The notes under the pieces are model-generated. The model made no database searches, was not told the origin of the DNA, and saw nothing but the letters and a program-made list of their open reading frames with translations. A stretch of DNA of 42,765 bases, taken from sequence record NC_041898.1; one strand, given 5' to 3'. Within the stretch, counting starts at the first letter, position 1. The number at the start of each line of letters is the position of its first letter. A program made the translations under genes and the position numbers. Origin of the DNA: Escherichia phage K1ind2. Below are positions 11,353 to 42,765 of the stretch, piece by piece.

Positions 11353-11357
11353 AACTA

Positions 11358-13777: not shown

Positions 13778-13807
13778 TTTAAATCCCTCCATTGTTGGTG
13801 TAAGTGA

Positions 13808-13836
13808 ATAGTACCCTATTATATTGGGGTGTGCAA
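13808..13836 (-). promoter_or_regulatory. Sigma70-type promoter (TTGCAC-N17-TACTAT) driving the minus-strand island
   Basis: Minus-strand TTGCAC (plus 13831-13836), 17-nt spacer, TACTAT (plus 13808-13813); 35 of 37 nt identical to the plus-strand promoter at 36087-36123. Confidence 0.6.
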
Positions 13837-13944
13837 GTAATGTGATAGAATAATTTTGCGCCTAGTGTCGCACACGAAAAGCGGGTGGTTCCCGTCTGGC
13901 GCATTTATCGTTAACCTGTAACCTCTTAACCAAAGGATTAAAGA

Positions 13945-18392: not shown

Positions 18393-18395
18393 CTT

Positions 18396-21819: not shown

Positions 21820-21831
21820 AGAGGACTCTAT

Positions 21832-23997: not shown

Positions 23998-24007
23998 CAA
24001 ATAAAAC

Positions 24008-24031
24008 TAAGGCCCCAAACGGGGCCTTTTC
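24008..24031. terminator. Bidirectional terminator between tailspike and minus-strand replication module
   Basis: aaggcccc-aaacg-gggcctt hairpin with flanking T-runs; near copy of the terminator at 11358-11380. Confidence 0.65.
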
Positions 24032-26913: not shown

Positions 26914-27198
26914 CTAACTATAATAGCTAGCTATTAGGTCGTCAACCTGTTTAAACGAACCAACGACAAAAACATTCGCACCACGTTTACGCATCCGCTC
27001 ATGTTCCCGTAGCTGGTGCGGGTCTGGCTTCGTGTTCTCGTCTTTCTTAACCTCGACGAACCAGACTATGCCGCCGGGGAGAATTACCAGCAGGTCTGGG
27101 GCGCCGGAACGCCCCTCGTAGGAGAGTTTGCGAACGAGGCCGCCAAGGGCCTCGAATCGGTCTTTTGCGTATTTCTGTACGCGGCCCTCTTTAGTCAT
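26914..27198 (-). CDS. VRR-NUC domain nuclease (PD-(D/E)xK)
   Basis: ORF track 26914-27213; ATG at 27198 (ATGA overlap with upstream small ORF) preferred. Motif GAPDLLVILPGGIVWFVEVKK matches the D...E-x-K core of VRR-NUC proteins. Confidence 0.6.
   Translation of the reverse strand: MTKEGRVQKYAKDRFEALGGLVRKLSYEGRSGAPDLLVILPGGIVWFVEVKKDENTKPDPHQLREHERMRKRGANVFVVGSFKQVDDLIASYYS
26917..26945 (-). promoter_or_regulatory. Sigma70-type promoter (TTGACG-N17-TATAGT), copy 1 of 3
   Basis: Minus-strand -35 TTGACG (plus 26940-26945), 17-nt spacer, -10 TATAGT (plus 26917-26922); about 31-bp element conserved with 30471-30499 and 32569-32597. Confidence 0.6.
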
Positions 27199-29790: not shown

Positions 29791-30417
29791 TTAACGGCGA
29801 CGACGTTCGCGGCGCGGTGCTTCATCCTCTTCATCGTCTTCAAGGTCATCGACGCTTGCGGCTACTTTAGAACCGCCAAACGCTTTACCTTCACCAACGT
29901 ATTTAATAGCCAGCAGGTTAACGCCGAGGACTTTGTATTTCTGGCTGAACCAGATTTCAACGCTTACGTTAGCGACGCAGCCGCTGTAAACCTGTTCACC
30001 TTCAATCTGTTCGCCGTCTACATTGAAGTCCTGTTCTACCTGAGTCTCGCCTTTTTTAGAGGTTACAATCAGTGGCTGTTTCTGTGCCTTCGCCTTGAAG
30101 TAGAAGCCTTCCGGGAAGTCTTCAAACGGATTGTCGCGCTCGGCAATGTCTTTAATCGCACATTTATCCATGTGCTTACCTTCGCCGTAGTTTGACTTCA
30201 TCCACTTCTCAGCGGCAGCTGCGCCCAACGCTTCTTCAACCACAGCGTAAACGGTGTCGTAGAGCGCGTCGATTTGTGCGTGGTCAGACGGCAGGATGAT
30301 AGTCGCGCTGTACTGGCCTTTAGTGATTGAGCCATCATCGTTTTCACGGTCTTTTTCGCGTTCGAATACGTTAACCCATGCAGTGTTTACTTTACGCAGA
30401 TTCAGTTTAATACCCAT
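29791..30417 (-). CDS. Single-stranded DNA-binding protein (T7 gp2.5 / DUF2815-like, putative)
   Basis: 208 aa; acidic C-terminal tail (DDLEDDEEDEA) then basic end; position next to polymerase and Cas4-like nuclease. Confidence 0.5.
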   Translation of the reverse strand: MGIKLNLRKVNTAWVNVFEREKDRENDDGSITKGQYSATIILPSDHAQIDALYDTVYAVVEEALGAAAAEKWMKSNYGEGKHMDKCAIKDIAERDNPFEDFPEGFYFKAKAQKQPLIVTSKKGETQVEQDFNVDGEQIEGEQVYSGCVANVSVEIWFSQKYKVLGVNLLAIKYVGEGKAFGGSKVAASVDDLEDDEEDEAPRRERRRR

Positions 30418-30470
30418 CGTGATTTCTCGCTTTTCAGTTTACTCCGGGAACTGCCCGGCCAGTGATTAGA

Positions 30471-30499
30471 ACTATAATAGCTAACTATTCAGGTGTCAA
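30471..30499 (-). promoter_or_regulatory. Sigma70-type promoter (TTGACA-N17-TATAGT), copy 2 of 3
   Basis: Minus-strand -35 TTGACA (plus 30494-30499), 17-nt spacer, -10 TATAGT (plus 30471-30476). Confidence 0.6.
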
Positions 30500-30503
30500 C
30501 ACT

Positions 30504-31769
30504 TTATTCCAAATCTTCTTCACTAACCTGATTCCACTCAGGACGTTTGTCGTCTGCCGTTGCGACACATGGTGCGCCTGGCTTACGGGTAATAAACGGC
30601 TCAAGCGCTGCCATCTCATCCGCAGAAAGAACTTTTGCTGCCTCCGTAGGGGACATCAATACCTCTTTTTTGAGAATGTCGCCGTGTGACACTTCAATCG
30701 CATCGGCATCTTTCCACGCACGATTACCCGGGCGGCCTTCTACCAGTTTGTACCCTGGCACTTTCTTACCTGAATGCAATGTGGCGGACATCGCTTTCTC
30801 AACCTTGTCGATGTGCTGGCGCAACAGCGGCAACTTCTCATACTCAACTACGAGTTGCTCCGTCGTCAGTTCCAGCACAAAGTCGTCTTCAAGTTCTTCC
30901 GCCAGTACAGAATTAACCGTCTTTGTACGCGCGGCACACTGTTCAGAGAACCGGCACCACTGGCAACCATCGACCGACGGTTTAAAGTCCGACGCTTTCA
31001 GGTTCTTCTTTCCACGGAAATAAGCATCAAGCGCTAACAGTGCCCGTTTCTGTGCGAACTTAGCGAACAGTTCCAGACCTTCGACCGAGATGTCCCACTC
31101 TGACGCACCCCCCGCGTACGGCTGGAAGATGACCAGGCGCACTACTGTGATGTTATAACGTCTCTTGAGTCGGCGATAAACACCGAGAGCGTAAAGCATA
31201 AGCTGCTTGTTTTCTTTCGCTTCAACACGATGCCGTCCAGTTTTAAGGTCGCCAATAATGAGCATGTGCTCGTCGGTGTTCGCCAGTTCCTGAACGGCAA
31301 CAATGTCGGCGGTTCCGAATGTCTCAACGCCTTCGTAGCCTGGATGCAATACCTCAGTAAGATTGACACGCATCTCGAGTTTGGCGTAAGTCGCTACATC
31401 GATAACAGCTTTGCAGTGGTCGGTGTACTTGCGCACCTGCTCAATCATGTCAGCCGTAATCAGTACCGCGCCTTTCATCGGGCTGCTTAGCGCCTTAATC
31501 TGGCCTTTACCCTCATCCAGCACGTAAGCACCTACTTCGCGCTCTAACGGCAACGCAGTGCCTTTGATGTACTGGTTTAAGTGCATCTCAGCTATGGTGT
31601 GCATAGCCGTCCCTAATACGGCGGCTTTACCTGACGTGTTAGGAATATCTTTTTCACAGGCCAGTGATGCACTGCACGCCAGCCACTTTTTAGCACCAGA
31701 CGGCGACAGTAAGGCGTGCACATCGTTATTGCCGCCGCGTTCCTTTAAAATCATACCCTGCTCTCCCAC
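30504..31769 (-). CDS. PD-(D/E)xK nuclease with Cas4-like cysteine cluster (DUF2800-like exonuclease)
   Basis: 421 aa; GTADIVAV and IIGDLKTG (D...D-x-K core), QLMLYAL (QxxxY), C-terminal CQWCRFSEQC plus an N-terminal Cys, as in Cas4/RecB-family nucleases. Confidence 0.7.
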   Translation of the reverse strand: MGEQGMILKERGGNNDVHALLSPSGAKKWLACSASLACEKDIPNTSGKAAVLGTAMHTIAEMHLNQYIKGTALPLEREVGAYVLDEGKGQIKALSSPMKGAVLITADMIEQVRKYTDHCKAVIDVATYAKLEMRVNLTEVLHPGYEGVETFGTADIVAVQELANTDEHMLIIGDLKTGRHRVEAKENKQLMLYALGVYRRLKRRYNITVVRLVIFQPYAGGASEWDISVEGLELFAKFAQKRALLALDAYFRGKKNLKASDFKPSVDGCQWCRFSEQCAARTKTVNSVLAEELEDDFVLELTTEQLVVEYEKLPLLRQHIDKVEKAMSATLHSGKKVPGYKLVEGRPGNRAWKDADAIEVSHGDILKKEVLMSPTEAAKVLSADEMAALEPFITRKPGAPCVATADDKRPEWNQVSEEDLE

Positions 31770-32023
31770 TGGTCAATTAAATGTCGTGTCTGGTGATGGC
31801 AATGCATGACCCACCCGTACATCGACTCGAAGACATAAAAGTCAGGTTTGGCGAAAGTCGTGCGCTTAATCTGCGACACGTGACGGCCTATATCTTTAGG
31901 CCGTGGTACTTTTCCTAAGTACGCCATCTCTTCCATCTGGTGCGAGCCAGACGGCGCACGTAACAGCCATAGCGCCTCTGTGTTATCCCGCCGGTCAACG
32001 GCGCGGTATAGTTGGTAAATCAT
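31751..32023 (-). CDS. Hypothetical protein
   Basis: 90 aa; overlaps start of nuclease gene by 19 nt; contains CHHQTRH. Confidence 0.4.
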   Translation of the reverse strand: MIYQLYRAVDRRDNTEALWLLRAPSGSHQMEEMAYLGKVPRPKDIGRHVSQIKRTTFAKPDFYVFESMYGWVMHCHHQTRHLIDQWESRV

Positions 32024-32066
32024 AATCCCGACCCTCGGTTAAAGCGGCCCGAAGGCCGCGGGATAG

Positions 32067-32537
32067 TTATTCTTCTTCGAAATACTTGTTCTTGATTGCT
32101 GTCAGGCGCTCCAGATACTCAGCCAGGTCTTCGTCTTTAATCGCTGCAATCTTCATCTTCTTTCCGGTAAACTCTTCCAGCAGTTCGTCAGAATCGTCGC
32201 ACGCGGCATCGCTTGGGCCTTCGTTAATCGCATCGTCGATAGCCTGAATCTGGTCGCGCAGAGACTGGTAATCGACTTCTTCTTTCTCTTCTTCCGGCTC
32301 TGGCGTTGGCTCCTCTACTTTAGCTTTACGCGGCTTGCGCTTCGGCTTCTCTTCTTCTGCTGGTTTAGTGTCAATGGTGTCTTCACCTTCTACCGGGATT
32401 TCTTTCGTTACTTCTTTCACAACAGTAGGCTCTATTGTTGCAGTTTTGGCAACGACAACTTGTTTCGCACTGTTCGCAGCAATCAGTTCATGTGCAACTA
32501 CGAAACGTTCCAGTAATACTAAGAATTTCTCTAACAT
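32067..32537 (-). CDS. Hypothetical acidic early protein
   Basis: 156 aa; GAGGAG SD before ATG; highly acidic/lysine-rich middle; first gene downstream of promoter copy 3. Confidence 0.45.
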   Translation of the reverse strand: MLEKFLVLLERFVVAHELIAANSAKQVVVAKTATIEPTVVKEVTKEIPVEGEDTIDTKPAEEEKPKRKPRKAKVEEPTPEPEEEKEEVDYQSLRDQIQAIDDAINEGPSDAACDDSDELLEEFTGKKMKIAAIKDEDLAEYLERLTAIKNKYFEEE

Positions 32538-32568
32538 TATTTATTCTCCTCTCGTTTGGTATGGTCTA

Positions 32569-32597
32569 ACTATAATAGCGAACTATTCACTTGTCAA
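32569..32597 (-). promoter_or_regulatory. Sigma70-type promoter (TTGACA-N17-TATAGT), copy 3 of 3
   Basis: Minus-strand -35 TTGACA (plus 32592-32597), 17-nt spacer, -10 TATAGT (plus 32569-32574). Confidence 0.6.
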
Positions 32598-32661
32598 CGG
32601 GCTTTTCTAAAATAATTAATATGGTACTATTCACATATCAACTGACTAAGGAGTAATTGAC

Positions 32662-32877
32662 ATGCAACCATCTGAACTAGGCATCCGTGTAGAACAGCGC
32701 CGTAAAGAACTCGGTATTTCCCAGCGCAGTCTGGCTGTCCTGGCCGGCGTTTCCCAGGGTGCAATTAACCAGCTTGCACTCGGGGTAACGCGGGACGTCC
32801 GCCCAGCAACACTGTTTAAACTGGCGGAAGTGCTAGAGGTAGATGCCAAGTGGCTGGCGTTCGGTGAAGGGGCTTAA
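32662..32877 (+). CDS. XRE-family helix-turn-helix transcriptional regulator (Cro/CI-like)
   Basis: 71 aa; HTH signature LGISQRSLAVLAGVSQGAINQLALG; AAGGAG SD 8 nt before ATG; lone plus-strand gene inside the minus-strand module, divergent from promoter copy 3. Confidence 0.75.
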   Translation: MQPSELGIRVEQRRKELGISQRSLAVLAGVSQGAINQLALGVTRDVRPATLFKLAEVLEVDAKWLAFGEGA

Positions 32878-32894
32878 CGCCCCTTTCTTTTTAC

Positions 32895-35162
32895 CTATTC
32901 CAAATCTTCCTCGGTCACTGTAAGCATTTCATTCGGTTCGTATATTGTCTTCGGAATCTTGTTGTCCGTTATTCGGGTATTCAATCTGTAACGGCCCGGG
33001 ATTATCTGATTGTTTTCGTCCGTACCAGGTACAAGATACCCCGCCTCAACCATTTTCTTAATCTTTCCGCGTTCTATGGCTTCTTTGGAGTTGAACGCCT
33101 TCGCGTTGGGGTCAGACTGTGCGAGCTTATTTGCCGCGGCTACCGTGATACCTTCGTTGCCGTTGTAGGTTCCTTCCGCCAGTTCAAACGCCGCCAGTAT
33201 CGTGGCTTCCGAACTGTTGACGGCGTTCTCCATGGTTCTACGTACGTTTTCTTTACCTTCCTTAGTCAGTCCTTCTTCCCGCTCTTTCTCCTCGTCGGTC
33301 TTGAACGGTTCGAAGCCCCACGGCATAAGCACAAGCGCTTTGTGCGGCTCAGGCAGGTCGAGGTTAACGGTTGTGCCGTATTCCTCTGTGCTACCGAGGA
33401 ACTCAACCGCGCGGTATTCTTTCGGTGGCGGGGCTTCGCGGAACTGTACCGACTCAAGCACCATACCAACCGTCTTCTGTTGCGGCCCATGCTTAAATTT
33501 AGAGTGGTATACATTTATCTGACGGTCTGTCGCGCGTTCGATTGTCAGCTCCACATCGACGCCAGCGTACAGCGCACCACTACCTCGGGCTTTCTTTCCG
33601 CCCTTCGGTGTATGGTGTACAACGCCTACCGCAGCTTTAGTCGCGTCACGTACTTCTTTCAGGATGGCGATAACCTTACCCATGCCGATTGCCGTTGATG
33701 AACTGTTCTCGTCGAACTTATCAATCGTCAGGGCTAGCGTCTGGTTGAGGGTGTCGAACGCAACCATGCCGATGGGTTCGTCACCCGCAGTTTCACGCAT
33801 CAACTTAATCAGGCTTTTCAGTTTTCCGACTTCGCCCATGTCGATGACATGTACATAATCTTTACCTTCCTCGCTATACTTAGCTGCGAGCGCATCGATA
33901 CGGGTGCGTGTAGCTGCGCCGCCCTCACCGTCGATATAAAAATGGTGGCAACGCTGCGTATCTGCCCCCGCAAACCGGTATCCGGCGGCGCTCAGGTACA
34001 TCATCCCCAGCGTATAGAACGATTTGTACGTGCCGGATTCCCCGACAATATCCCAGATACAATCTGACGGCATGTACCCTTCAACGACGAAATCCGCCTT
34101 TACCGGTTCCGGTAACTCGTCATCCTCTGAGTCCTCATCATCTTCCAGGTCGTCGAGGCTGCATGAAACAGATTCACGTGCACCCCATCCGATGGCCTCT
34201 GCGACTTCACTGAACGGCAGCCCCGTCGCATCGCACGCATACTTCCACACCTCTTTCGGTGACATGCCTTCGGTCGCCGTAATGTCAGTGTCGTGAATCA
34301 TGGTTACGTTCGGCGCCTCATATCCCTCTCGCGGGAAGCACAGCAGGAAGTCATCCGGGCGCGGCGTCGGGTCGCTGTAGTTTTCTGCGTGTTCTGGCGT
34401 AGCTGGCATCTTAAGGCCTCGTGGCGTCATGATACCGCCATACTCGAACGCCAGTGCCTCGAACGCGTCGGTAAACGCGGTGCGCAGTTCTTCCGGTATC
34501 TGGTAATCCGATGCGCTGCTAACGTCAACGGCGGGGATGCCTTCCAGTAACTCGTCCGGGTCAATCAGGTCGTTGCGGCGTGACCAGATAACGGTAGAGC
34601 CAACCGGAGGCAGGTACATCGGTTGCGAAAGAGTGAACCCGCTGCGGTCAGCACCCATGCTTTTGAAGAAGTGTTCCAGCAATCCATGGCGAACACGGAT
34701 GATGTCACCACCTTCGACCGGACGGGCCAGCGGCATGACGACGCGAAAGCGCGGGGACTCGTCGGTATGTGATGCCGTGGTATAGATACACAGGCCCCGG
34801 CGGCTGCGTTTAACTAAGCGCACCGCTTCCTGATACTCTTCTGGTGTTGCGCTGTCGAAGTCCAGATACGCCAGCGACGATTTGCTTACAGACGCGTCAC
34901 AGCGATAGAAAAAGCCTTTACGCGCTTGCTTAAAGTCGGCGGTTTCCGGGTCTTTTACAGTGCTGTGCGTCGAGTCGCACGCGGCGGTGATATAACCGGG
35001 CGCGGTCTTCGGGTTAATTCCGTCACGGACAGCATCGAGTGGCTGGATTAACTCTTTCAGGTCGTCCAGTGTTGCCGTGTGTGTGGTTCTGACGTTTATA
35101 TCCTTTTTCTCAGCCCGCGCGTTGCGACGCGACCACGAGTAGGATAAAATTACATCGGACAT
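32895..35162 (-). CDS. Primase-polymerase / helicase fusion protein (AEP-like N-terminus, RecA-like ATPase C-terminus)
   Basis: 755 aa; N-terminal LAYLDFDSA (DxD) and TASHTDE consistent with an AEP/prim-pol domain; central Walker A GESGTYKS and Walker B-like VAFDTL. Confidence 0.65.
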   Translation of the reverse strand: MSDVILSYSWSRRNARAEKKDINVRTTHTATLDDLKELIQPLDAVRDGINPKTAPGYITAACDSTHSTVKDPETADFKQARKGFFYRCDASVSKSSLAYLDFDSATPEEYQEAVRLVKRSRRGLCIYTTASHTDESPRFRVVMPLARPVEGGDIIRVRHGLLEHFFKSMGADRSGFTLSQPMYLPPVGSTVIWSRRNDLIDPDELLEGIPAVDVSSASDYQIPEELRTAFTDAFEALAFEYGGIMTPRGLKMPATPEHAENYSDPTPRPDDFLLCFPREGYEAPNVTMIHDTDITATEGMSPKEVWKYACDATGLPFSEVAEAIGWGARESVSCSLDDLEDDEDSEDDELPEPVKADFVVEGYMPSDCIWDIVGESGTYKSFYTLGMMYLSAAGYRFAGADTQRCHHFYIDGEGGAATRTRIDALAAKYSEEGKDYVHVIDMGEVGKLKSLIKLMRETAGDEPIGMVAFDTLNQTLALTIDKFDENSSSTAIGMGKVIAILKEVRDATKAAVGVVHHTPKGGKKARGSGALYAGVDVELTIERATDRQINVYHSKFKHGPQQKTVGMVLESVQFREAPPPKEYRAVEFLGSTEEYGTTVNLDLPEPHKALVLMPWGFEPFKTDEEKEREEGLTKEGKENVRRTMENAVNSSEATILAAFELAEGTYNGNEGITVAAANKLAQSDPNAKAFNSKEAIERGKIKKMVEAGYLVPGTDENNQIIPGRYRLNTRITDNKIPKTIYEPNEMLTVTEEDLE

Positions 35163-35220
35163 GTTATATTTCCTTCAGCAAGTAATTTGGCCTCGGCGTT
35201 CACCGCGTCGGGGCTTTCTT

Positions 35221-35496
35221 TTATTCCAGGTCGCGGGAGATATTACCCTCGGGCACCAACACTTTTCCAATACTTCTCGCTTTCTCTGTAATAGGCGTCG
35301 CTCTTGTTGCCCGATAAAACTTTCCTTTATTAAGAATCTCACCATGTCGCTCGAGCACATCTAAAGCATGTTTGATCGGGTTTACACCGTAATTATCCAA
35401 CCGGTATCTCCGAAGCCCGTCTACCGTAAAAGCGCCGTTCGCTTCGGTCAGTCTGCGTGCACACATTAATATGTGTTTCTGGAATTTAGTTAGCAT
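35221..35496 (-). CDS. Hypothetical protein
   Basis: ORF track 35221-35541; internal ATG at 35496 with GGAGAA SD preferred (91 aa). Confidence 0.4.
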   Translation of the reverse strand: MLTKFQKHILMCARRLTEANGAFTVDGLRRYRLDNYGVNPIKHALDVLERHGEILNKGKFYRATRATPITEKARSIGKVLVPEGNISRDLE

Positions 35497-35665
35497 CTTT
35501 AACGTTCTCCTTAATCCACGCCTCCACAGTAGCGCGGTCAAAGGTACCTGGCTGACGGTAGCCGTTGATAACGCGGCAACACTCCGGGAACTTTCCTGAC
35601 CGAAGCCAGCGATTAAGAGTCATAGGGGAAACCCCGATTAAGTCTGCTACTTCTTTCTGTGTCAT
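35486..35665 (-). CDS. Small HTH DNA-binding protein (AlpA/excisionase-like)
   Basis: ORF track 35486-35695; ATG at 35665 with GAGAGGG SD preferred. TQKEVADLIGVSPMTLNRWLRSGKFPE is a typical AlpA/MerR-type HTH. Confidence 0.6.
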   Translation of the reverse strand: MTQKEVADLIGVSPMTLNRWLRSGKFPECCRVINGYRQPGTFDRATVEAWIKENVKDAN

Positions 35666-35736
35666 TTTACACGCCCTCTCTATCAAGTGAAACAACTATA
35701 ACACCTACAATAGACAAACACAACCTATTGACAAAA

Positions 35737-35765
35737 TAAAATGTAGCTGTAAAATCAACGTATCG
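35737..35765 (+). promoter_or_regulatory. Candidate sigma70 promoter (TTGACA-N16-TAAAAT) in long intergenic region
   Basis: TTGACA at 35737-35742, 16-nt spacer, TAAAAT; about 380 nt upstream of the first plus-strand early gene. Confidence 0.4.
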
Positions 35766-36086
35766 AATGGCTTTAGTTAAGAATTACTTAGAAACAATAT
35801 TCTTAAGTCTCGGGTACTTAAAGCCCCGCCATAAAGCGGGGCGCTAAATAGTACTCTTGGTAACGTTAGTATCTAAGTTTCCTCAAAGTAACAGCAAGTG
35901 GCAAGAAAGCCCCCGTCTATTTAAATTTTACCCTCCTTCATAAGACACTGATAATTAAAAGTTTCTATAGTTGCCGTAAACGTGGAAGAGAGTACTTCAC
36001 TTCGCTGGGGTGGGCTAACGCCCACCCACTGCGTTGCGTACTCTTTTAAGAAACGAAAGAATCACAACGGCAACGTAACTATTCTC

Positions 36087-36115
36087 TTGCACACCCCAAC
36101 ATAATAGGATACTAT
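36087..36115 (+). promoter_or_regulatory. Sigma70-type early promoter (TTGCAC-N17-TACTAT)
   Basis: -35 TTGCAC 36087-36092, 17-nt spacer, -10 TACTAT 36110-36115; about 35 nt upstream of ATG 36150; near-identical copies at 13808-13836 (minus) and 37387-37415. Confidence 0.65.
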
Positions 36116-36149
36116 TCACTTATCGAGACGAGACAGAGGAGTGAGGGTT

Positions 36150-36347
36150 ATGTTTAAGAATGGTCAGTTGGTTAAATACTCCGACGATAAACACGGCATA
36201 ATTGAATTAAAATCTGCTTTATTTCCAGGAAAGTACGTAGTTACCGTGCAAAATGTGAGAGGAGTAAATTCACAAATATACGTAGCAGAGGAGAACTTAA
36301 AACTCATCGGCAACAATTTTAAATTTAAAGGGGGGAGGGTGAAGTGA
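36150..36347 (+). CDS. Hypothetical early protein
   Basis: ORF track 36141-36347 (GTG); ATG 36150 with GGAGTGAGGG SD preferred (65 aa). Confidence 0.45.
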   Translation: MFKNGQLVKYSDDKHGIIELKSALFPGKYVVTVQNVRGVNSQIYVAEENLKLIGNNFKFKGGRVK

Positions 36348-36547
36348 TGGAAGAATTATTTGAAGAACTGAAACATCATGATTTCGAGGAAATATATTTC
36401 GTAGCTGAACGCTACGAGGTGCATCTGGCGGACGGTATAACGGTTATTACATCTACCAGCGAGCGAATGTTAAATAGCTTACGAGCAATACGAACGGCAT
36501 CGAATCATGATGCTTGTGCCGACGACGCTGAGGGAGGTTGCCGTTAA
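36344..36547 (+). CDS. Hypothetical early protein
   Basis: 67 aa; ATGA overlap with upstream gene; acidic. Confidence 0.45.
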   Translation: MMEELFEELKHHDFEEIYFVAERYEVHLADGITVITSTSERMLNSLRAIRTASNHDACADDAEGGCR

Positions 36548-36726
36548 TGCGAATCCGTATAACTGACCGCAGGCTTGTCCGTATAACTGACCGCAGGCTT
36601 ATAGATTTCGGTATCTCGGTAGGTGATGTTTTTCCGGCGTTCAGCATCAACCATTATGGTTTTATGATTGAGTACAAAGGGTCGTTATTGTTCGTGTATC
36701 GGGATGAATGTGAGGTTCTGGTATGA
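36547..36726 (+). CDS. Hypothetical early protein containing an in-frame 8-codon tandem duplication
   Basis: ORF track 36538-36726 (TTG); ATG 36547 with GAGGGAGG SD preferred (59 aa); encodes RITDRRLVRITDRRLI from the 24-bp DNA tandem repeat. Confidence 0.4.
   Translation: MRIRITDRRLVRITDRRLIDFGISVGDVFPAFSINHYGFMIEYKGSLLFVYRDECEVLV
36554..36601. repeat. 24-bp tandem direct repeat, 2 copies
   Basis: tccgtataactgaccgcaggcttg followed by tccgtataactgaccgcaggctta (47 of 48 positions identical). Confidence 0.9.
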
Positions 36727-36872
36727 GAGAAGCATTTGAACGGTGGGCTGTGGTCGAGGGTCTGCCGGTTAACAAGGGTTCAAAGAAAGAGTACCTGAAC
36801 GTTAAGACGCGTCTCGCGTGGCGGGCGTGGAAAGCTGGTGTGCAATCCTTGATTGAAAGAGGTGTGAGGTAT
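36723..36872 (+). CDS. Small hypothetical protein (49 aa)
   Basis: Hand-found; start overlaps upstream stop, stop overlaps downstream ATG; W/R-rich basic protein. Confidence 0.35.
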
Positions 36873-37071
36873 GGGTGAGTGGATTAAGTGTAGTGAGATG
36901 CTGCCAGGTAATGGGTATACGGATAAAGAGTTCCTGGTGTATGAAACGTTAAATAACGCAGTTCAGCACGATTATTACATAGTTCCTGATGACGGGAGAA
37001 AGCCTTTCTGGAATCACTACGATAAGTACGTGACGCACTGGATGCCGTTACCCGAGCCGCCAGAAGTGTGA
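36871..37071 (+). CDS. DUF551-like protein
   Basis: 66 aa; WIKCSEMLP...VTHWMPLPEPPE matches the conserved pattern of phage DUF551 proteins as I recall it. Confidence 0.55.
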   Translation: MGEWIKCSEMLPGNGYTDKEFLVYETLNNAVQHDYYIVPDDGRKPFWNHYDKYVTHWMPLPEPPEV

Positions 37072-37205
37072 TGTTCAATAGTTTGGGATTTTACTGAGTG
37101 ACTTACGCTGCTACACCGCAGCGTACAACTTTAACTTAGTGTCGTCAAAAGGCGACACTTTCATCAAACGCAACAATCGAAGCGACTATTGCAGGAGATG
37201 CAACA

Positions 37206-37379
37206 ATGATTACTAAAGAACAGGCTGAACGACTAATAACGTTAATCGACACGATGATTGACGTAAAAACCGATTTAGCAACGGCAACAGAGGAATCCGC
37301 TACCTGGTCGCTTGAAGAAAGAGAAGCAGAAGCGGAAAGGGAGTTACTGGCATTCATCGACTCCATAACACACCAATAA
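37206..37379 (+). CDS. Small hypothetical acidic protein (57 aa)
   Basis: Hand-found; AGGAG SD 9 nt before ATG; preceded by two stem-loops (37110-37170). Confidence 0.35.
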   Translation: MITKEQAERLITLIDTMIDVKTDLATATEESATWSLEEREAEAERELLAFIDSITHQ

Positions 37380-37386
37380 AATTTAC

Positions 37387-37415
37387 TTGCACACTAAGAT
37401 AGAATAGGCTACTAT
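37387..37415 (+). promoter_or_regulatory. Sigma70-type early promoter (TTGCAC-N17-TACTAT)
   Basis: -35 TTGCAC 37387-37392, 17-nt spacer, -10 TACTAT 37410-37415; same family as 36087-36115. Confidence 0.6.
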
Positions 37416-37445
37416 TCATTTACACAAGCGAGAGGAGAGACAGAG

Positions 37446-37580
37446 ATGGGCTGGTACGGTAGCTGGACTTTAGGCGAACTGGTAGACGCTTACGAAATAA
37501 TTAGTAGCACTTCGGTGTGTGACGGCGACACTAAATCGCTGCTAGTCGTGGTGGATGCGAAAAGGGGTGAAGCTGATGAG
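37446..37580 (+). CDS. Small hypothetical protein (44 aa)
   Basis: Hand-found; AGGAGAGA SD upstream; first ORF after promoter; overlaps next gene start. Confidence 0.3.
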
Positions 37581-38121
37581 TAACAAAAACGAAATATTCG
37601 AGTACCTGATCGACCAGCTACGGCAGCAGGTAAATAACAGCCGGAGCGAAGACCTGGCGCATGAGGTGCAGTCACTTAAGAATCAGTTACGTGATGCGTC
37701 GGCGCAGATTAAGGAGTTGCGGGAAGACAACATTAAGAAATCTGAGCACATATCGCACCTGACAGGGCAAGTTAAGGAGTTGCGTCTGGCATTGGCCGAG
37801 GCTACTGGTGACGTGGAGGCATACAAACTTATCCGCAAAGGTGCGTACGGTTCGGAGCAATCTGGTTGCCGAAAAGAAGATACGCAGGAATGTGACCACA
37901 ATTGGATTATCGCTCCAGGATTGTTTATTGCCGAAGGCCACAAGGACAACGTGCCCGGTAGCCTGTTTTGCTGCGAATGCGGCAAGCGTGAGTGGGACGG
38001 ACTTGAGTATGGGGCGACAGCCTGTACACAGGAGTGCAAACACAGTTTCTATTATGTAATAACAGATGGCTCCGCGCCGTTCGGTACGAAAGTATGTAAA
38101 ACGTGTGGGGAATACTTCTGA
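37576..38121 (+). CDS. Hypothetical protein with N-terminal coiled coil and C-terminal Cys-rich (zinc-binding-like) region
   Basis: ORF track 37555-38121; ATG 37576 with AAAAGGGG SD preferred. Heptad-rich N-terminus; C-terminus has multiple CxxC pairs (CCECGK, CKTCGEYF). Confidence 0.5.
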   Translation: MSNKNEIFEYLIDQLRQQVNNSRSEDLAHEVQSLKNQLRDASAQIKELREDNIKKSEHISHLTGQVKELRLALAEATGDVEAYKLIRKGAYGSEQSGCRKEDTQECDHNWIIAPGLFIAEGHKDNVPGSLFCCECGKREWDGLEYGATACTQECKHSFYYVITDGSAPFGTKVCKTCGEYF

Positions 38122-38324
38122 TGACCAGCATCTTATTTATCTGGGTACTGTCGGCGGGCCAGATGCAACTAGCGGCATCGGAAACGTTTTATTCGATGGA
38201 GGCGTGCCAGTCAGCGGCACGCGCCGCAGAGAACGCGCACTTTCTGTTTCAGGGTGACAAGCCCAACGATTCAGAGGTACGCGCTATCTGCTCACCTAAG
38301 CGACTTGGTAAACAGGAGAAATAA
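38121..38324 (+). CDS. Small secreted/membrane protein (putative)
   Basis: ORF track 38103-38324; ATG 38121 overlapping upstream stop preferred (67 aa). N-terminal hydrophobic signal-like segment MTSILFIWVLSAG. Confidence 0.4.
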   Translation: MTSILFIWVLSAGQMQLAASETFYSMEACQSAARAAENAHFLFQGDKPNDSEVRAICSPKRLGKQEK

Positions 38325-38617
38325 TGTCGTTAGCAACTGACATCCTGAAACGAAGCGGCCTTGCGCCGCTGTCGCCGAGAGCGAATACGCGTATACACAA
38401 GCGCCGCCGTAATGCACTGTACCCCGAGATTCAGGCCAGACGCAAAGCGGTCCGCGCCTGTGGATTCCAGAACGGGAAGGCTGTGAATCTCGGTGAGTTT
38501 AAAACACAGGAACGCGCAGCAATCGCTAATCGGCTATTTAATTACTGGAAATCGTTGGGATACGATGATATTCCGACGAAACCGCAGAGACGCCAATACA
38601 TCTGGAGACATAAATAA
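38324..38617 (+). CDS. Hypothetical basic protein
   Basis: 97 aa; R/K-rich; overlaps upstream stop. Confidence 0.45.
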   Translation: MSLATDILKRSGLAPLSPRANTRIHKRRRNALYPEIQARRKAVRACGFQNGKAVNLGEFKTQERAAIANRLFNYWKSLGYDDIPTKPQRRQYIWRHK

Positions 38618-38692
38618 ACAACTATTAGGATAATTCCTACCCGTGGTATCCTCCAGTTACTGCATACTTAATACGCACCTGGAGGATTCATC

Positions 38693-39001
38693 TTGGATAA
38701 ATTTACTGAAACAGTGACGGGGTGGCTTCTCGCTGCCGCACTGGTCGGTGGATTGGTCGGGCTAAGACAACATAAAAAGTCTATATCCGGGCCGATTGAC
38801 GGACTGGTATTTCTTCTCACCGGCTTCGCGTGTGCTATTTTCGGTGCACCTCTTGCCGCTCAATGGTTCGGTATTACCGGTGAGCGCGAGATAGCTGGCC
38901 TCGGATTCATCATTGCCATTCTCTGGATGCCTATCTATTCCCGCCTTTCTGGCATCGTATCGGGCAGCGATATTGCCCGCCCAGGAGGACCGCATGACTG
39001 A
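38693..39001 (+). CDS. Holin (putative, three transmembrane segments)
   Basis: 102 aa; TTG start 6 nt after a GGAGGA SD; three hydrophobic segments and charged C-terminus; located two genes upstream of the endolysin. Confidence 0.5.
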   Translation: MDKFTETVTGWLLAAALVGGLVGLRQHKKSISGPIDGLVFLLTGFACAIFGAPLAAQWFGITGEREIAGLGFIIAILWMPIYSRLSGIVSGSDIARPGGPHD

Positions 39002-39266
39002 GCTATTCTGGTTTGTCGTAATGCTGGCAATGGGCGCTTCGTCCCTGTTCAACGTGTATAATGAACGCGTGGACGACGGGCTGTTCGGGCGTGTTCTCTA
39101 TATCCTGACTGCTATCGTCTGTGCCGCCGGATGTATTCACCTGTTACAGGGCAGCATGTCGCCTACGCTGCCTGAGACATTAATCACATTAGTCGCGCTG
39201 CGCCAGATTCGCCAGGCGTGGCTGTCATACGGAGGGCATAAGCGTGTCTCGAAATATTTCAGATAA
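38994..39266 (+). CDS. Second small membrane protein of lysis cassette (holin/antiholin-like)
   Basis: ORF track 38913-39266; ATG 38994 with AGGAGG SD preferred (90 aa); two hydrophobic segments; overlaps endolysin start. Confidence 0.45.
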   Translation: MTELFWFVVMLAMGASSLFNVYNERVDDGLFGRVLYILTAIVCAAGCIHLLQGSMSPTLPETLITLVALRQIRQAWLSYGGHKRVSKYFR

Positions 39267-39729
39267 TGGATTGCATTTCTGTGCCGCGTTCGAGGGATTC
39301 CGCGGAACTGCGTATCGCGCTACGCCGAACGAGAAGTACCTGACTATTGGTTATGGTCACTACGGGCCAGACGTAACACCAGGTAAGACCATCACGCCAG
39401 GGCAAGGCCTCCTGTTACTGAATCGTGATATGGCTAAGGCTGTAGCTGCGGTTGACGCAGCAGCACACCACTCCCTGACACAGGCGCAGTTTGATGCAGT
39501 GTGCGACCTGGTCTATAACGCAGGTGCTGGCGTGATTGCGTCTACTACGGGCACAGGCAAGGCACTGCGTTCTGGTGATACTGCAACACTGCGGGCTAAG
39601 CTGGCGCTGTTCATCAACCAGAACGGCAAACCACTACTTGGCCTGCGTCGCCGTACAGCCGGGCGTCTGGCGCTGTTCGACGGTAAACCGTGGCAAGAGG
39701 CTGAGGCTATTGGGAGGGCTGTTAAATGA
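39244..39729 (+). CDS. Endolysin, lysozyme-like (glycoside hydrolase family 24-type)
   Basis: 161 aa; N-terminal FEGFRGTAY...TIGYGH resembles the catalytic Glu/Asp/Thr region of T4 E / lambda R-type lysozymes. Confidence 0.75.
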   Translation: MSRNISDNGLHFCAAFEGFRGTAYRATPNEKYLTIGYGHYGPDVTPGKTITPGQGLLLLNRDMAKAVAAVDAAAHHSLTQAQFDAVCDLVYNAGAGVIASTTGTGKALRSGDTATLRAKLALFINQNGKPLLGLRRRTAGRLALFDGKPWQEAEAIGRAVK

Positions 39730-39856
39730 TGGACGAATACGAAGGCGTTTAGTAAACTTATCCATACGCTGCTTGTGCTTGCATACTAAGCCCCGGTAAA
39801 CCCGAAGCAGCAGCCCAAGCGGTGGAGACTGCGTAGGGTTCAGGGGCTTATGACCG

Positions 39857-39888
39857 AAACCCGGACCGCGAATCCGGGTTTTATTTTA
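39857..39888 (+). terminator. Rho-independent terminator
   Basis: aaacccgg-accgcgaat-ccgggttt hairpin followed by TATTTT. Confidence 0.65.
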
Positions 39889-39962
39889 CCAATTGACACC
39901 TGAGACTAATCCGACGATACTTAAATCACCTCCTGTTCCATCCCTCTGCTCTCCAGTTTTAT

Positions 39963-39994
39963 CCCGGCCCTGACCCAGCCGGGATTTTTTTTAT
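39963..39994 (+). terminator. Rho-independent terminator
   Basis: cccggc-cctgaccca-gccggg hairpin followed by a run of 8 T. Confidence 0.7.
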
Positions 39995-40014
39995 CTGTTT
40001 TCTGTAATGACTAG

Positions 40015-40043
40015 TTGACTATTACCTTAGACCCTATTATATT
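40015..40043 (+). promoter_or_regulatory. Candidate sigma70 promoter (TTGACT-N17-TATATT)
   Basis: TTGACT 40015-40020, 17-nt spacer, TATATT 40038-40043; about 35 nt upstream of ATG 40077. Confidence 0.5.
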
Positions 40044-40076
40044 TACTCCATCGACAACGAGAACGGAGTAGAGAAG

Positions 40077-40154
40077 ATGAGTAACTTTCATAATGAGCAT
40101 GTGATGCAGTTCTACCGCAATAATCTGAAAGCTAAAGGGGTGTTTGGAAAATGA
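40077..40154 (+). CDS. Small hypothetical protein (25 aa)
   Basis: Hand-found; GGAG SD; stop overlaps next ATG (ATGA). Very short. Confidence 0.25.
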
Positions 40155-40300
40155 AAATCACAGACATCGAAGCATTCAAAGACGCACAACTGATGGCACG
40201 CATCGCCGTTAGTAACCTGAGCAACAGCATTCCAGCGGACGCGTTCTGGTTCGCTGCGATGCAGACACTTAAAGCAGCTTACGCAGGAGAGAAGAAATGA
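40151..40300 (+). CDS. Small hypothetical protein (49 aa)
   Basis: Hand-found; ATGA overlaps at both ends. Confidence 0.35.
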
Positions 40301-40455
40301 GCGAGTCAGAAGGAAATATCACGACACCATCCGCCGGGAAGAAAGTCAACCGCACCCCGTTCCCGACACGAGAGGAACTGATGAAACGTAACAGTTTCCC
40401 TGGGCCGGACAAGAACAAGTATCTTAATCGCATGTGGGGAGAGCGTAAAGAATGA
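40297..40455 (+). CDS. Small hypothetical protein (52 aa)
   Basis: Hand-found; AGGAGAG SD upstream; ATGA overlaps. Confidence 0.35.
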   Translation: MSESEGNITTPSAGKKVNRTPFPTREELMKRNSFPGPDKNKYLNRMWGERKE

Positions 40456-40697
40456 CTGACCGCGAATACGAAAAGATGATGGTTGAGGCCGTTAACGGCG
40501 GCGCAGACATTAGCCATGTGATGCACGTCCTGAATACTAAAATCGCTGTAGCTGAGCAAATGGTTGAGTCGCTTTATGAGACGCGCCGTGAACTGATTAA
40601 CCGCTTCAACCTGAACAAGTGCGAACATGAGTTCGACTACAATCCGAAGGATATGTGCGGGCAGTGTATTAAATGCGGGGTACAGCGTCATGCCTAA
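40452..40697 (+). CDS. Small protein with C-terminal zinc-ribbon-like motif
   Basis: 81 aa; C-terminal CEHEF...CGQCIKCG; paralogous in architecture to the next gene. Confidence 0.5.
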   Translation: MTDREYEKMMVEAVNGGADISHVMHVLNTKIAVAEQMVESLYETRRELINRFNLNKCEHEFDYNPKDMCGQCIKCGVQRHA

Positions 40698-40938
40698 AAT
40701 CACAATCGCATCGCTCGAGCGCCGTATTCTGGTGCTTGAGTCGGAGAAACAGACGCTAGGCTGGCAACTGTCGATTAACGGTGAGTACCAGTTAGCCGCA
40801 TTTAAGGTTCTTCTCATGTTGTTGAGAGGAGAAGAGGAAAAGATGAACGCCTGCGAGCATGATTACCGCCTGCATTTAGTTGATGGGGTGCATCGAGTCA
40901 CATGCTTAAAATGCGGTAAAGCGTATGGAGTCGCCTAA
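40690..40938 (+). CDS. Small protein with C-terminal zinc-ribbon-like motif (paralog of previous)
   Basis: ORF track 40627-40938; ATG 40690 overlapping upstream stop preferred (82 aa); C-terminal CEHDY...CLKCG. Confidence 0.45.
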   Translation: MPKITIASLERRILVLESEKQTLGWQLSINGEYQLAAFKVLLMLLRGEEEKMNACEHDYRLHLVDGVHRVTCLKCGKAYGVA

Positions 40939-41107
40939 ACCAGTAGTAATTGATGGTGTCCTGTGGAAACCCTACTCGGTTAACCATATCGACGCCGACG
41001 GGAAGAAGTTTAGTTTCTACATTTTTGCAATTAGCCGTGAGCACGCCGCCTGTGTGGTCGACGATATACGAGAAACGGCGTGGCTCGGTGATGAGATAGT
41101 GGGGTGA
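40925..41107 (+). CDS. Hypothetical protein
   Basis: 60 aa ORF overlapping upstream gene end. Confidence 0.4.
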   Translation: MESPKPVVIDGVLWKPYSVNHIDADGKKFSFYIFAISREHAACVVDDIRETAWLGDEIVG

Positions 41108-41111
41108 GAGT

Positions 41112-41342
41112 ATGTTTCACGAACTGAAGATATTACCTGATCATTTTGAGCCTGTTATGGCGGGAATCAAGCTGGCGGAACTTCGATTAAACGACCGCGA
41201 CTTTAAGGAATATGACACTCTGTGCCTGCGAGAATACGAAAACGGTGGGTACACAGGCCGTATCGTTTACCGCCGCATCATTCATGTTGCGGACGTAGGG
41301 GCTTACCTACCAGGGTACGTGCTATTAAGTATGGAGGGTTGA
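41112..41342 (+). CDS. ASCH/PUA-like small protein (DUF3850-like)
   Basis: 76 aa; HELKILPDHFEPVMAGIKLAELRLNDRDFKEYDTLCLREY matches the conserved N-terminal pattern of DUF3850/ASCH-like phage proteins as I recall it. Confidence 0.5.
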   Translation: MFHELKILPDHFEPVMAGIKLAELRLNDRDFKEYDTLCLREYENGGYTGRIVYRRIIHVADVGAYLPGYVLLSMEG

Positions 41343-41344
41343 GT

Positions 41345-41437
41345 ATGAGTCTTGAGGTGGTTATTGGCCTTGTCGCAGCAGGTTATTTTATCGGCGTATT
41401 GATTGGGTTTATGTGGGGTAGAGACAGTGTTCAGTGA
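41345..41437 (+). CDS. Small hydrophobic peptide (30 aa)
   Basis: Hand-found; GGAGGG SD before ATG; single hydrophobic helix (VVIGLVAAGYFIGVLIGFMW). Confidence 0.3.
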   Translation: MSLEVVIGLVAAGYFIGVLIGFMWGRDSVQ

Positions 41438-41597
41438 CATTAATGCGGCAATCGAAGAAGCAATCTGGCGTCGCTACAACGGTGAGCAACAACGGCACTT
41501 CTGCCTGGTGCAACGCGGAAACATGATTGCTGTGGTACAGGACCGTGATAATAAATATCCGAATGCGATGTGGACAACGAGGAATTTCTTAGGATGA
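41403..41597 (+). CDS. Hypothetical protein
   Basis: 64 aa by track (TTG start); true start may be the GTG at 41427. Confidence 0.35.
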   Translation: MGLCGVETVFSDINAAIEEAIWRRYNGEQQRHFCLVQRGNMIAVVQDRDNKYPNAMWTTRNFLG

Positions 41598-41830
41598 TTA
41601 CCAGCATTCCGAACCTGATTAAAGAATTTGGCACGATGGCGGAGACATGCCGACAAACCGGCATCAACGAAATGACGATTGCGAAGTACAGCAAAGACGT
41701 CGATTGTGAACGCCATGTAATTTATAACAATCGTCTGATGACGCACGTTAAGACAAGCCCGGTGTTATTCACGCGCCGGGGTATTACTAAAACAGAGCAA
41801 CGTATTGCTAAAGAGGAGAGTGGGGAATGA
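41570..41830 (+). CDS. Hypothetical protein (possible HTH)
   Basis: 86 aa (alternative ATG at 41594); basic C-terminus. Confidence 0.4.
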   Translation: MDNEEFLRMITSIPNLIKEFGTMAETCRQTGINEMTIAKYSKDVDCERHVIYNNRLMTHVKTSPVLFTRRGITKTEQRIAKEESGE

Positions 41831-41985
41831 TTAGTATTCTGGAGTTCATCGACAACCAAGTTTGGTACGAGCCAGAGTTAAATAAGTATTCAGTTAATGG
41901 GAAAATATTTCGGCGCAAAGGCCAGGCAGAGCGTTACGCAGCTAAACTATACCGCCAGCTTGTCAAGGATGGTTTCTTCAAATGA
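41827..41985 (+). CDS. Small hypothetical protein (52 aa)
   Basis: Hand-found; ATGA overlap with upstream stop. Confidence 0.35.
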   Translation: MISILEFIDNQVWYEPELNKYSVNGKIFRRKGQAERYAAKLYRQLVKDGFFK

Positions 41986-42012
41986 GACTACTAATCATCC
42001 CTAACGCCTGGG

Positions 42013-42056
42013 CCATTCCCGTAGCTAACGACCATTCCCGTAGCTAACGACCATTA
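42013..42056. repeat. 19-bp tandem direct repeat (2 full copies plus partial third)
   Basis: ccattcccgtagctaacga at 42013-42031 and 42032-42050, then ccattacgg. Confidence 0.9.
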
Positions 42057-42105
42057 CGGCGGCGACGGTAAAATAGCACCACGCCACGGCCTATACAACT
42101 GATAC

Positions 42106-42129
42106 AAGCCCTCTACCGAGGGCTTTTCT
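42106..42129 (+). terminator. Rho-independent terminator
   Basis: gccctc-tacc-gagggc hairpin followed by TTTTCT. Confidence 0.65.
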
Positions 42130-42223
42130 GTACATCCCGCCCAATCCCCTTATATAATCCCTTTAGACGCGTAGGGCGCGTCTGATGCGCTCTGATGGTC
42201 AGACGCATATGCAAGGGGATTCT

Positions 42224-42765
42224 ATGAAGCTGAAACTCAAGCAGCCATCGCCAGAGGTGGTGCAAGCTGCACATGAAGAAGCTGTTAGCGCAAACCGCCG
42301 CCGTAAACGACCGCGCGGTAAACAGAGCCTTTATCAATCGTCCCGTAATTCCGCAGCGTTGTGGGACCCGGACTATTGCGACGCGTTAATCGAGTTCTTC
42401 GACCGCACGTCATGGGAACTGGTGCCTACATCTAAGGGTGACGAACGCCCGCTGATTCAGGATAAACCGCCGTCACTGGCCCGCTTTGCCTTACACATCG
42501 GCGTCACTATCCCTATTATTAAGCTATGGCTGCGTGAGATTCCAGCATTCGCAGAAGCCTGGGAGACCGCACAGGCACTGGAAGAGGCATACTTCACTGA
42601 GACGGGGGCCGCGGGCATCTCGGCTACATTTGCTGCCGCTAAGCTGGGCCTCGGCAAAGAGAAACCAGTTGAATCTACTGAAGAGACAGCACCAACTGAG
42701 ATTGTATTCACCGTAGCGGAGCCAGTAGGTAAAATCGTTACCACGAACATGGGTGAGGTAGAGGA
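42224..42765 (+). CDS. Terminase small subunit (putative; 3' end truncated by window)
   Basis: Hand-found ORF open from ATG 42224 (GGGGA SD) to the window end (180 codons, no stop); basic N-terminus then LARFALHIGVTIPIIKLWL; sits where a small subunit gene is expected if the genome is circularly permuted. Confidence 0.55.
   Translation, partial: MKLKLKQPSPEVVQAAHEEAVSANRRRKRPRGKQSLYQSSRNSAALWDPDYCDALIEFFDRTSWELVPTSKGDERPLIQDKPPSLARFALHIGVTIPIIKLWLREIPAFAEAWETAQALEEAYFTETGAAGISATFAAAKLGLGKEKPVESTEETAPTEIVFTVAEPVGKIVTTNMGEVE

Follow-up and report, generated by a model that had tools for sequence, protein, structure and literature searches.

A 14-bp palindrome shared by predicted sigma-70 promoters of Escherichia phage K1ind2, with a Cro-like protein as its candidate binder

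Introduction

The Cro protein of phage 434 binds 14-bp palindromes, and its operators OR1-OR3 (ACAA-N6-TTGT, 14 bp) overlap the promoters PR and PRM. In the immunity I region of phage P22 (Pant/Pmnt), the repressors Arc and Mnt are ribbon-helix-helix proteins that act at one locus. Here, the genome sequence of Escherichia phage K1ind2 (NC_041898.1; the whole stretch of 42,765 nucleotides (nt) is the window) was analysed for a 36-nt promoter-like module at 36087-36122 and for a 14-bp palindrome (dyad), AATAG-N4-CTATT, which is the core common to this module and six other predicted promoters of the phage. These are probably sigma-70 promoters in which an operator for a Cro-like repressor is embedded, the predicted binder being a protein of 71 amino acids (aa) that resembles 434 Cro.

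Bases 30000-42765 of K1ind2 matched Escherichia phage K1ind3 (GU196281) with 99.7% identity over the full length of that stretch, and more than 400 records of Kagunaviruses and Jerseyviruses matched more weakly. On the basis of these sequence matches, K1ind2 is placed as a siphovirus in the subfamily Guernseyvirinae, genus Kagunavirus.

The arrangement in K1ind2 resembles that of phage 434 in several respects. Both regulators are single-domain 71-aa helix-turn-helix (HTH) proteins of the XRE type, both kinds of site are 14-bp dyads with half-sites approximately one helical turn apart, the operators lie over sigma-70 promoter elements, and sites are found beside the regulator's own gene. However, the relatives of K1ind2 are annotated without a CI partner, integrase or bistable switch, and the K1ind2 sites are spread over at least seven promoters across approximately 24 kb and do not form one tripartite operator. 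In addition, the half-site is AATAG compared to ACAA, the similarity between the two proteins is modest and binding by the K1ind2 protein is predicted. A lambdoid CI/Cro bistable switch was considered and rejected, as the divergent gene (32537-32067) had no Pfam match and no integrase or CI was annotated in the relatives. The likeness to P22 Arc/Mnt is that small repressors have dyad operators between the -35 and -10 elements, or over them, in divergent promoters, here P32597 and P_cro (Table 1), whereas the single locus and the ribbon-helix-helix fold of the P22 system differ from the genome-wide set in K1ind2. Morons of lambdoid phages are units of promoter, gene and terminator placed in late operons. 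They are resembled in part by an island that has a predicted promoter and a terminator of its own, is oriented against tail genes and carries variable distal cargo, and by a sliding-clamp gene with the same cassette in related phages. Unlike in morons, the slot of the island was filled in all four lineages compared, and its promoter would belong to the phage's own regulon and not be autonomous and prophage-expressed.

The motif itself has already been reported in two genome papers as an output of PHIRE, as tgAATAGTa-ccTATTat-T in phage fBC-Eco01 (PMC9825357) and as TAATAGTACCCTATTATGTT in Salmonella phage SGP-C (PMC8790156), both of the same sequence as the K1ind2 motif. The dyad, its placement in sigma-70 promoters and the link to a Cro-like protein are mentioned in neither paper. 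The Jerseyvirus SGP-C was also reported to be temperate and possibly episomal, partly from the same Cro-like and HTH_17 genes (PMC8790156), a claim that deserves scrutiny as the annotated relatives list no integrase or CI.

Results

Palindrome and predicted promoters

A search of K1ind2 with the motif AATAGNNNNCTATT produced 6 exact and 5 one-mismatch sites, 11 in total compared to 0.89 expected, and none of 100 shuffled sequences reached 11. AATAG-N4-CTATT was also the commonest palindrome of the 5+gap+5 type in K1ind2 and in two Jerseyviruses. A repeat finder grouped 36101-36124 with positions 26920, 30474, 32572 and 32616 through a 24-nt core, ATAATAG-N4-CTATTCA..TC. Overall, seven predicted promoters of two architectures shared the one dyad. 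In each, the -10 ended 30-53 nt ahead of an ATG that follows a Shine-Dalgarno sequence. The spacing between -35 and -10 was 17 bp in six of them, the seventh (P_cro) having no -35.

The three promoters of class A lie on the minus strand (P26945, P30499 and P32597) and were absent from an earlier sequence-only reading of this DNA; what they share with the others is the palindrome. They head operons for replication and recombination. Their hexamers matched the sigma-70 consensus at 10-11 of 12 positions and the palindrome was placed inside the spacer, whereas in class B it lay over the -10. The helicase-primase operon had no dyad in its promoter region (35666-35740), and the head and tail region had no exact dyad other than that of P_imm.

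The four class-B copies showed a wider repeat. The 36-nt string TTGCACACCCCAACATAATAGGATACTATTCACTTA at 36087-36122 (plus strand) recurred in reverse complement at 13801-13836 with 2 mismatches (34/36 identical), while 100 dinucleotide-preserving shuffles showed that no chance matches to the 36-mer were expected. The repeat finder paired 36086-36122 with 13801-13837 at 35/37 identity, one extra 5' base being included. The near-identical repeat described by the sequence-only reading was therefore confirmed, its 35/37 being right and its coordinates one base off. The looser third copy and the partial copy without a -35 (near 32608) that it had listed were found as well, the former at 37387-37422 with 28/36 positions identical to P36087 and the latter at approximately 32602-32637 with 21/36 identical, CTTTTC in the -35 position and TACTATTCAC kept. 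Its statement that all copies lie upstream of first genes of operons held in part. The -10 ended 30-34 nt before an ATG with a Shine-Dalgarno sequence in all four copies and P36087 heads the plus-strand small-gene block beginning at ATG 36150, but P37387 is preceded by an open reading frame (ORF) at 37206-37379 with no terminator in between, which makes it an internal promoter and not the head of an isolated operon.

The promoter interpretation of the class-B copies was supported by a TTG-type -35, the 17-bp spacer, a TAnnAT -10, and the Shine-Dalgarno sequence and ATG at the distances given above. The hexamers TTGCAC/TACTAT matched the sigma-70 consensus at 7 of 12 positions, with the key TTG and TA...T positions present. 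Conservation in related phages, proposed earlier as a check, was observed for the module, which in its extended 38-nt form was present in 206 related phage records. The class-B element is thus supported as a predicted host sigma-70 promoter, and early expression from these predicted promoters is plausible. The co-regulation that had been proposed from the repeated module was backed more strongly than was argued at the time, as a conserved operator-like palindrome is common to four further promoters.

A promoter-like sequence (TTGACT-N17-TATATT) was also observed at 40010-40043, right after a terminator and ahead of the gene block that leads to the terminase genes. Its -35 was overlapped by a one-mismatch dyad, ACTAGTTGACTATT, and this arrangement was conserved in Kagunaviruses and Jerseyviruses. 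ACTAGTTGACTATT may be weakly bound by the same regulator, in a late or packaging promoter; it also resembles what we take to be the TrpR operator.

Conservation of the half-sites

The same sites occurred at the orthologous promoters of K1ind3, fFiEco03, Schulenburg and the Jerseyvirus Shelanagig, with differing N4 and flanks, and the TACTATT part of P_cro was kept in Jerseyviruses. Motif enrichment was also found in Shelanagig (9 sites compared to 1.3 expected) and phiEap-2 (10 compared to 1.2). A sequence logo built from motif hits was discarded as evidence, because the sites had been picked by their half-sites and the conservation would be circular; gene-anchored alignments of orthologous regions were used instead. 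For this, the 110 nt upstream of the start of the SSB-like gene were aligned for 42 unique Kagunavirus and Jerseyvirus sequences, anchored independently of the motif. The mean column entropy was 0.05 for the -35, 0.72 for the 4-nt linker, 0.09 for the left half-site, 0.92 for the central N4, 0.03 for the right half-site, 0.17 for the remaining -10 and 1.02 for the upstream sequence. The half-sites at the SSB promoter equalled the -35 and -10 in invariance, while the linker and central N4 were variable. Sigma-70 does not read the spacer, and a pair of invariant 5-nt blocks in it, separated by one helical turn, is the signature of a dimeric DNA-binding protein. Gene-anchored alignments for class B produced no footprint, as divergent orthologues of the small genes downstream were too few. 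The distance of the site from the -35 differed among promoters and genera, being 4, 7 or 10 nt.

Just downstream of P30499, a hairpin (CCGGG-CAGUU-CCCGG) was observed at 30441-30464 in the 5' untranslated region of the minus-strand SSB-like transcript. Its pairing was kept in other clades by two-sided changes (CUCGG/CCGAG, CCCGG/CCGGG and CCUGG/CCAGG), and it may act on the SSB-like gene either as a translational operator or as a stability element.

Candidate binding protein

Pfam scans covered 20 selected small ORFs of the early region and the island and produced two DNA-binding proteins. One of them, the product of 32662-32877, matched HTH_3 (E 7.9e-13), and its closest solved relative was the 71-aa Cro of phage 434, matched over the full length (E 4.5e-7, residues 6-68). 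The gene appeared to be monocistronic with a terminator-like hairpin at 32866-32886, and two dyads (32574-32587 and 32618-32631) were located within 90 nt upstream of its ATG at 32662.

Comparison of 80 IMG/VR loci around homologues of the Cro-like protein showed that four or five clades with other Cro variants had other palindromes beside cro, at -46 to -125 of the gene, which recurred elsewhere in the same locus. Loci L071 and L079 had TTAGC-N2-GCTAA at 5 sites, one of them at -105 relative to cro. L056 had AATAC-N4-GTATT at -120, -55, +2912 and +6998, L083 had GTATA-N6-TATAC at -125, -74 and +662, and L087 had TGTAG-N4-CTACA at -123, +279 and +308. The palindromes of L071, L079, L056 and L083 were placed in an architecture of -35, 17-bp spacer and -10 like that of K1ind2, while L087 was compared by position alone. 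Most clades kept the -35 and -10 of the orthologous SSB promoter, with a clade-specific dyad in the spacer. GGCACC-N-GGTGCC repeats in L068 were dropped as operators since they are terminator stems. The palindrome of L071 and L079 equals what we take to be the consensus of the host MarR-family regulator SlyA, TTAGCAAGCTAA, which may be a coincidence or may reflect the use of a host factor by some of the relatives.

Discussion

Proposed mechanism and points against it

The Cro-like protein is probably the binder of the dyad, and the sign of the regulation is judged, with similar confidence, to be repression. Host RNA polymerase would fire all promoters sharing the palindrome after infection, and the Cro-like protein would then build up. 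Its dimer would bind the palindromes through half-sites one helical turn apart and block RNA polymerase, so that the early and replication operons and the cro-like gene itself would be turned down together. A dimer over the -10 or in the spacer of a promoter occludes RNA polymerase, and the dimer bound here would cover approximately -26 to -13 in class A or -19 to -6 in class B, which would exclude the polymerase. Most likely, the early and replication operons would be shut down in concert and the protein would repress its own gene. Promoter activity, protein binding and timing are all predicted from sequence. A role of the element at the RNA level was dropped, as the predicted start sites lie downstream of the element and an Rfam scan of the whole K1ind2 sequence showed no match.

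Several points weigh against this interpretation. A generic sigma-70 scan of K1ind2 listed the three class-A promoters but not three class-B copies, because the class-B hexamers match the consensus at only 7/12 positions; the promoter call for class B therefore rests on geometry and conservation. P_imm has an alternative -10, TATAAT, 10 nt upstream. Part of the conservation may reflect close kinship of the sampled genomes, and the Cornellvirus sites were asymmetric and degenerate (AATAC-N4-CTAAT). The Cro proteins of Kagunaviruses and Jerseyviruses were 52% identical with different presumed recognition helices (SQGAINQ and SQSLITH) and the same core palindrome, so that the covariation of protein and site is not one-to-one. 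In the literature searched, no Guernseyvirinae phage was found with mapped transcription starts or with transcriptome, expression or binding data. Finally, each full genome of a Kagunavirus or Jerseyvirus that was examined and had the exact motif also had the second DNA-binding protein, HTH_17. Only phiEap-2 and the Kagunavirus locus L036 break this link, and the segment that replaces HTH_17 in L036 encodes other, uncharacterised proteins.

Alternative explanations

The palindrome could be an operator bound by HTH_17, another phage protein or a host regulator, with either repression or activation as the result, and this was considered unlikely. HTH_17 was weighed as the binder for its phyletic co-occurrence with the motif, as it was also undetected by tblastn and profile search in Cornellvirus, L056, L071 and other clades without the exact motif. 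Moreover, the promoter region of its operon lacks the palindrome, as expected of an upstream regulator, and the 5-4-5 layout of the motif is presumably the same as that of the TrpR operator (ACTAG-N4-CTAGT). It was downgraded after the results for phiEap-2 and L036. The whole genome of phiEap-2 had no HTH_17 homologue in a profile search (E ≤ 1), yet its motif-like sites were located at the same promoter positions (cro, SSB, island and others). In L036, the HTH_17 segment was replaced by unrelated ORFs while all sites were unchanged. As phiEap-2 and L036 both keep the motif without HTH_17, the Cro-like protein was taken as the probable binder of the dyad. A host factor would leave unexplained why the palindrome changes between phage clades on similar hosts, and activation of the MerR type was ruled out as the spacers are 17 bp and not 19-20 bp. 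That the promoters are plain paralogues without operator function, the dyad being a by-product of A/T-rich -10-like hexamers on both strands, is less probable still. In its favour, both ends of the palindrome are overlapped by TATAAT-like and TATAGT hexamers, the paralogy of the three class-B copies clearly extends beyond the palindrome, and the extended module was multiplied only in Kagunaviruses. However, the class-A palindrome lies in the spacer with half-sites as invariant as the hexamers around a variable linker and N4, the distance of the site from the -35 varies among promoters and genera, and other clades retained the -35 and -10 with a different palindrome substituted.

Binding by the Cro-like protein could also serve to activate the weak class-B promoters as a middle-gene switch instead of a shut-off. 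The low match of the class-B hexamers to the consensus and the lack of a -35 at the cro promoter would fit such a switch, but it was considered very improbable, since a dimer over the -10 or filling the spacer would occlude RNA polymerase, the near-consensus class-A promoters need no activator, and no site was centred near -41.5 or -61.5. The label given to the motif in fBC-Eco01, where seven "phage RNA polymerase" promoters were reported (PMC9825357), was given almost no credence. RNA polymerase or sigma factor was annotated in none of 6 related genomes, which makes the label untenable, and neither turned up in the Pfam scans of selected K1ind2 proteins. The dyad is embedded in -35/-10 pairs of the sigma-70 type, and PHIRE outputs repeated motifs of any kind. 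Operators for the Cro-like repressor remained the preferred explanation.

Tail-operon island and copying of the cassette

The island driven by P_imm carries four genes on the strand opposite to the flanking tail genes, with its own promoter (13836-13801), and closes at a bidirectional terminator (11357-11376). Of 220 matching records, 47 had the full island. In all 4 Guernseyvirinae lineages compared, the minus-strand slot that separates the tail-tube and chaperone genes was filled. Upstream of the slot, the Jerseyvirus and phiEap-2 genomes examined had a promoter-like -35 and a palindrome-type site, and no palindrome-type site was found there in the Cornellvirus genome. The metallophosphoesterase core was shared with Jerseyviruses and only the distal kinase and phosphatase cargo varied. 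Acquisition of the island through the promoter, which had been suggested from the repeated module, was not upheld: the slot and the core of immunity and phosphoesterase genes are ancestral and the slot is occupied in all lineages compared, so the island was probably not brought in by this promoter. A weaker form of the suggestion is kept, in which the cassette was copied within the lineage.

Among the matches listed, the 38-nt module had 2-3 copies per genome in Kagunaviruses and 1 in Jerseyviruses, the latter being the counterpart of P36087 in Shelanagig. In the Jerseyvirus island promoter, the dyad was 7 nt away from the -35 instead of 10 nt, and the flanks were unrelated. The head operon of fFiEco03 and of Schulenburg contains a sliding-clamp gene on the opposite strand, headed by a third copy of the module. 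K1ind2 has no such gene, and the position is taken in K1ind3 by another insertion, of 696 bp. The copy numbers and the additional sliding-clamp copy, together with a P36087/P_imm identity that exceeds what operator and hexamers need, point to a promoter-operator cassette that is, by sequence comparison, copied within the Kagunavirus lineage onto accessory, opposite-strand units. The wider proposal, that a portable cassette was copied from an ancestral P36087 to accessory islands in the late operons (the island of P_imm and, in relatives, the sliding-clamp gene) and would plug their cargo into a genome-wide Cro-like regulon, with Cro, for lack of a CI partner and lysogeny functions, as a purely early/middle shut-off factor, is tentative and was regarded as doubtful.

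Gene layout and other sequence features

The gene order of K1ind2 and the coordinates of the features are as in Table 1. Near-identical bidirectional terminators, ATAAAACTAAGGCCCC-N4-GGGGCCTTTT, were found at 4315-4344, 11349-11378 and 24001-24030, where the direction of transcription flips. Just upstream of P36087, a long GC-rich hairpin with a T-run, GAGAGTAC..GGGTGGGC-taac-GCCCACCC..GTACTCTTTT, was located at 35985-36050. A 28-nt terminator-like hairpin occurred in inverted copies at 4613-4640 and 35819-35846 (96% complementary). In addition, a near-consensus plus-strand promoter (TTGACA-N16-TAAAAT, 35728-35755) preceded the hairpins at 35819 and 35985 with no obvious gene, and at 36554-36600, within small early ORFs, a 23-nt sequence, TCCGTATAACTGACCGCAGGCTT, was exactly duplicated in tandem with one base between the copies.

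A second palindrome, GAATA-N3-TATTC (GAATAAnTTATTC), had 5 hits with at most 1 mismatch in K1ind2 compared to 0.9 expected. It was found at 4390-4402 and 5173-5185 in K1ind2, at 11501, 11874, 12637 and 12670 in locus L006 and at 7650 and 8315 in locus L007. The sites flank the spanin genes and are located just ahead of the scaffold and capsid genes, and the same place was used in phiEap-2 and Cornellvirus Shemara. The site at 5173 abuts TTGACA with a poor -10 and is centred near -41, a layout typical of an activator-dependent late promoter.

Table 1. Coordinates of promoters, palindromes, genes and gene blocks in K1ind2, and of sliding-clamp genes in two related loci (L002, L003)
Feature	Position	Strand	Remarks
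P36087, class-B promoter	36087-36122	+	-35 TTGCAC 36087-36092, 17-bp spacer, -10 TACTAT 36110-36115, then TCACTTA
Palindromic operator-like site AATAGGATACTATT	36103-36116		Overlaps P36087 -10
P_imm, class-B promoter	13801-13836	-	Heads minus-strand island within tail operon
Palindromic site AATAGTACCCTATT (plus-strand reading)	13807-13820		Overlaps P_imm -10
P37387, class-B promoter	37387-37422	+	TTGCAC-N17-TACTAT; upstream of ATG 37446; palindrome AATAGGCTACTATT at 37403-37416
P_cro, class-B copy before cro-like gene	32616-32639	+	-10 TACTAT 32625-32630; no recognisable -35; one-mismatch palindrome AATATGGTACTATT at 32618-32631
P32597, class-A promoter	32569-32597	-	TTGACA-N17-TATAGT; 11/12 to consensus; divergent from cro-like gene; heads operon from ATG 32537
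Palindrome AATAGCGAACTATT	32574-32587		In spacer of P32597
P30499, class-A promoter	30471-30499	-	TTGACA-N17-TATAGT; heads operon of SSB-like gene (30417-29791) and DNA polymerase gene
Palindrome AATAGCTAACTATT	30476-30489		In spacer of P30499
P26945, class-A promoter	26917-26945	-	TTGACG-N17-TATAGT; heads methylase/helicase operon
Perfect 16-bp palindrome TAATAGCTAGCTATTA	26921-26936		In spacer of P26945
Cro-like HTH_3 (XRE family) protein, 71 aa	32662-32877	+	Candidate binder of palindrome
HTH_17 small DNA-binding protein	35486-35665	-	First gene of helicase-primase operon; rival candidate binder
Superinfection-immunity protein	13777-13586	-	Island, driven by P_imm (predicted)
Metallophosphoesterase	13547-12417	-	Island
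PNKP-type HAD phosphatase	12420-11935	-	Island
Kinase-like P-loop protein	11935-11381	-	Island
Terminase, head and tail-tube genes	1-11352	+	Gene order
Four-gene island	13792-11381	-	Gene order
Tail genes	13945-23997	+	Gene order
Replication genes	32537-24033	-	Gene order
Lone small gene (cro-like)	32662-32877	+	Gene order
Helicase-primase operon	35695-32895	-	Gene order
Small genes, lysis genes, small terminase	36141 to end	+	Gene order
DNA polymerase III sliding-clamp gene, L002	4348-4869		Opposite to head operon; class-B cassette promoter at approximately 4896-4930
DNA polymerase III sliding-clamp gene, L003	5636-6157		Opposite to head operon; class-B cassette promoter at approximately 6184

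Significance

The proposed circuit, with a Cro-type repressor and operators embedded in promoters, is of a familiar kind and is unusual only in its genome-wide dispersal without a CI partner. For general phage biology, it would be an expected type of circuit and no new principle. Kagunaviruses and Jerseyviruses are frequent isolates for therapy and biocontrol and are being adopted as small chassis for phage engineering (PMC11990801). If the interpretation is true, one 71-aa protein and a 14-bp site would govern nearly all non-structural operons of these phages, which would offer a simple handle to time or silence genes in engineered phages. It would also correct the published "phage RNA polymerase promoter" label and provide a clean promoter-annotation rule for several hundred genomes.

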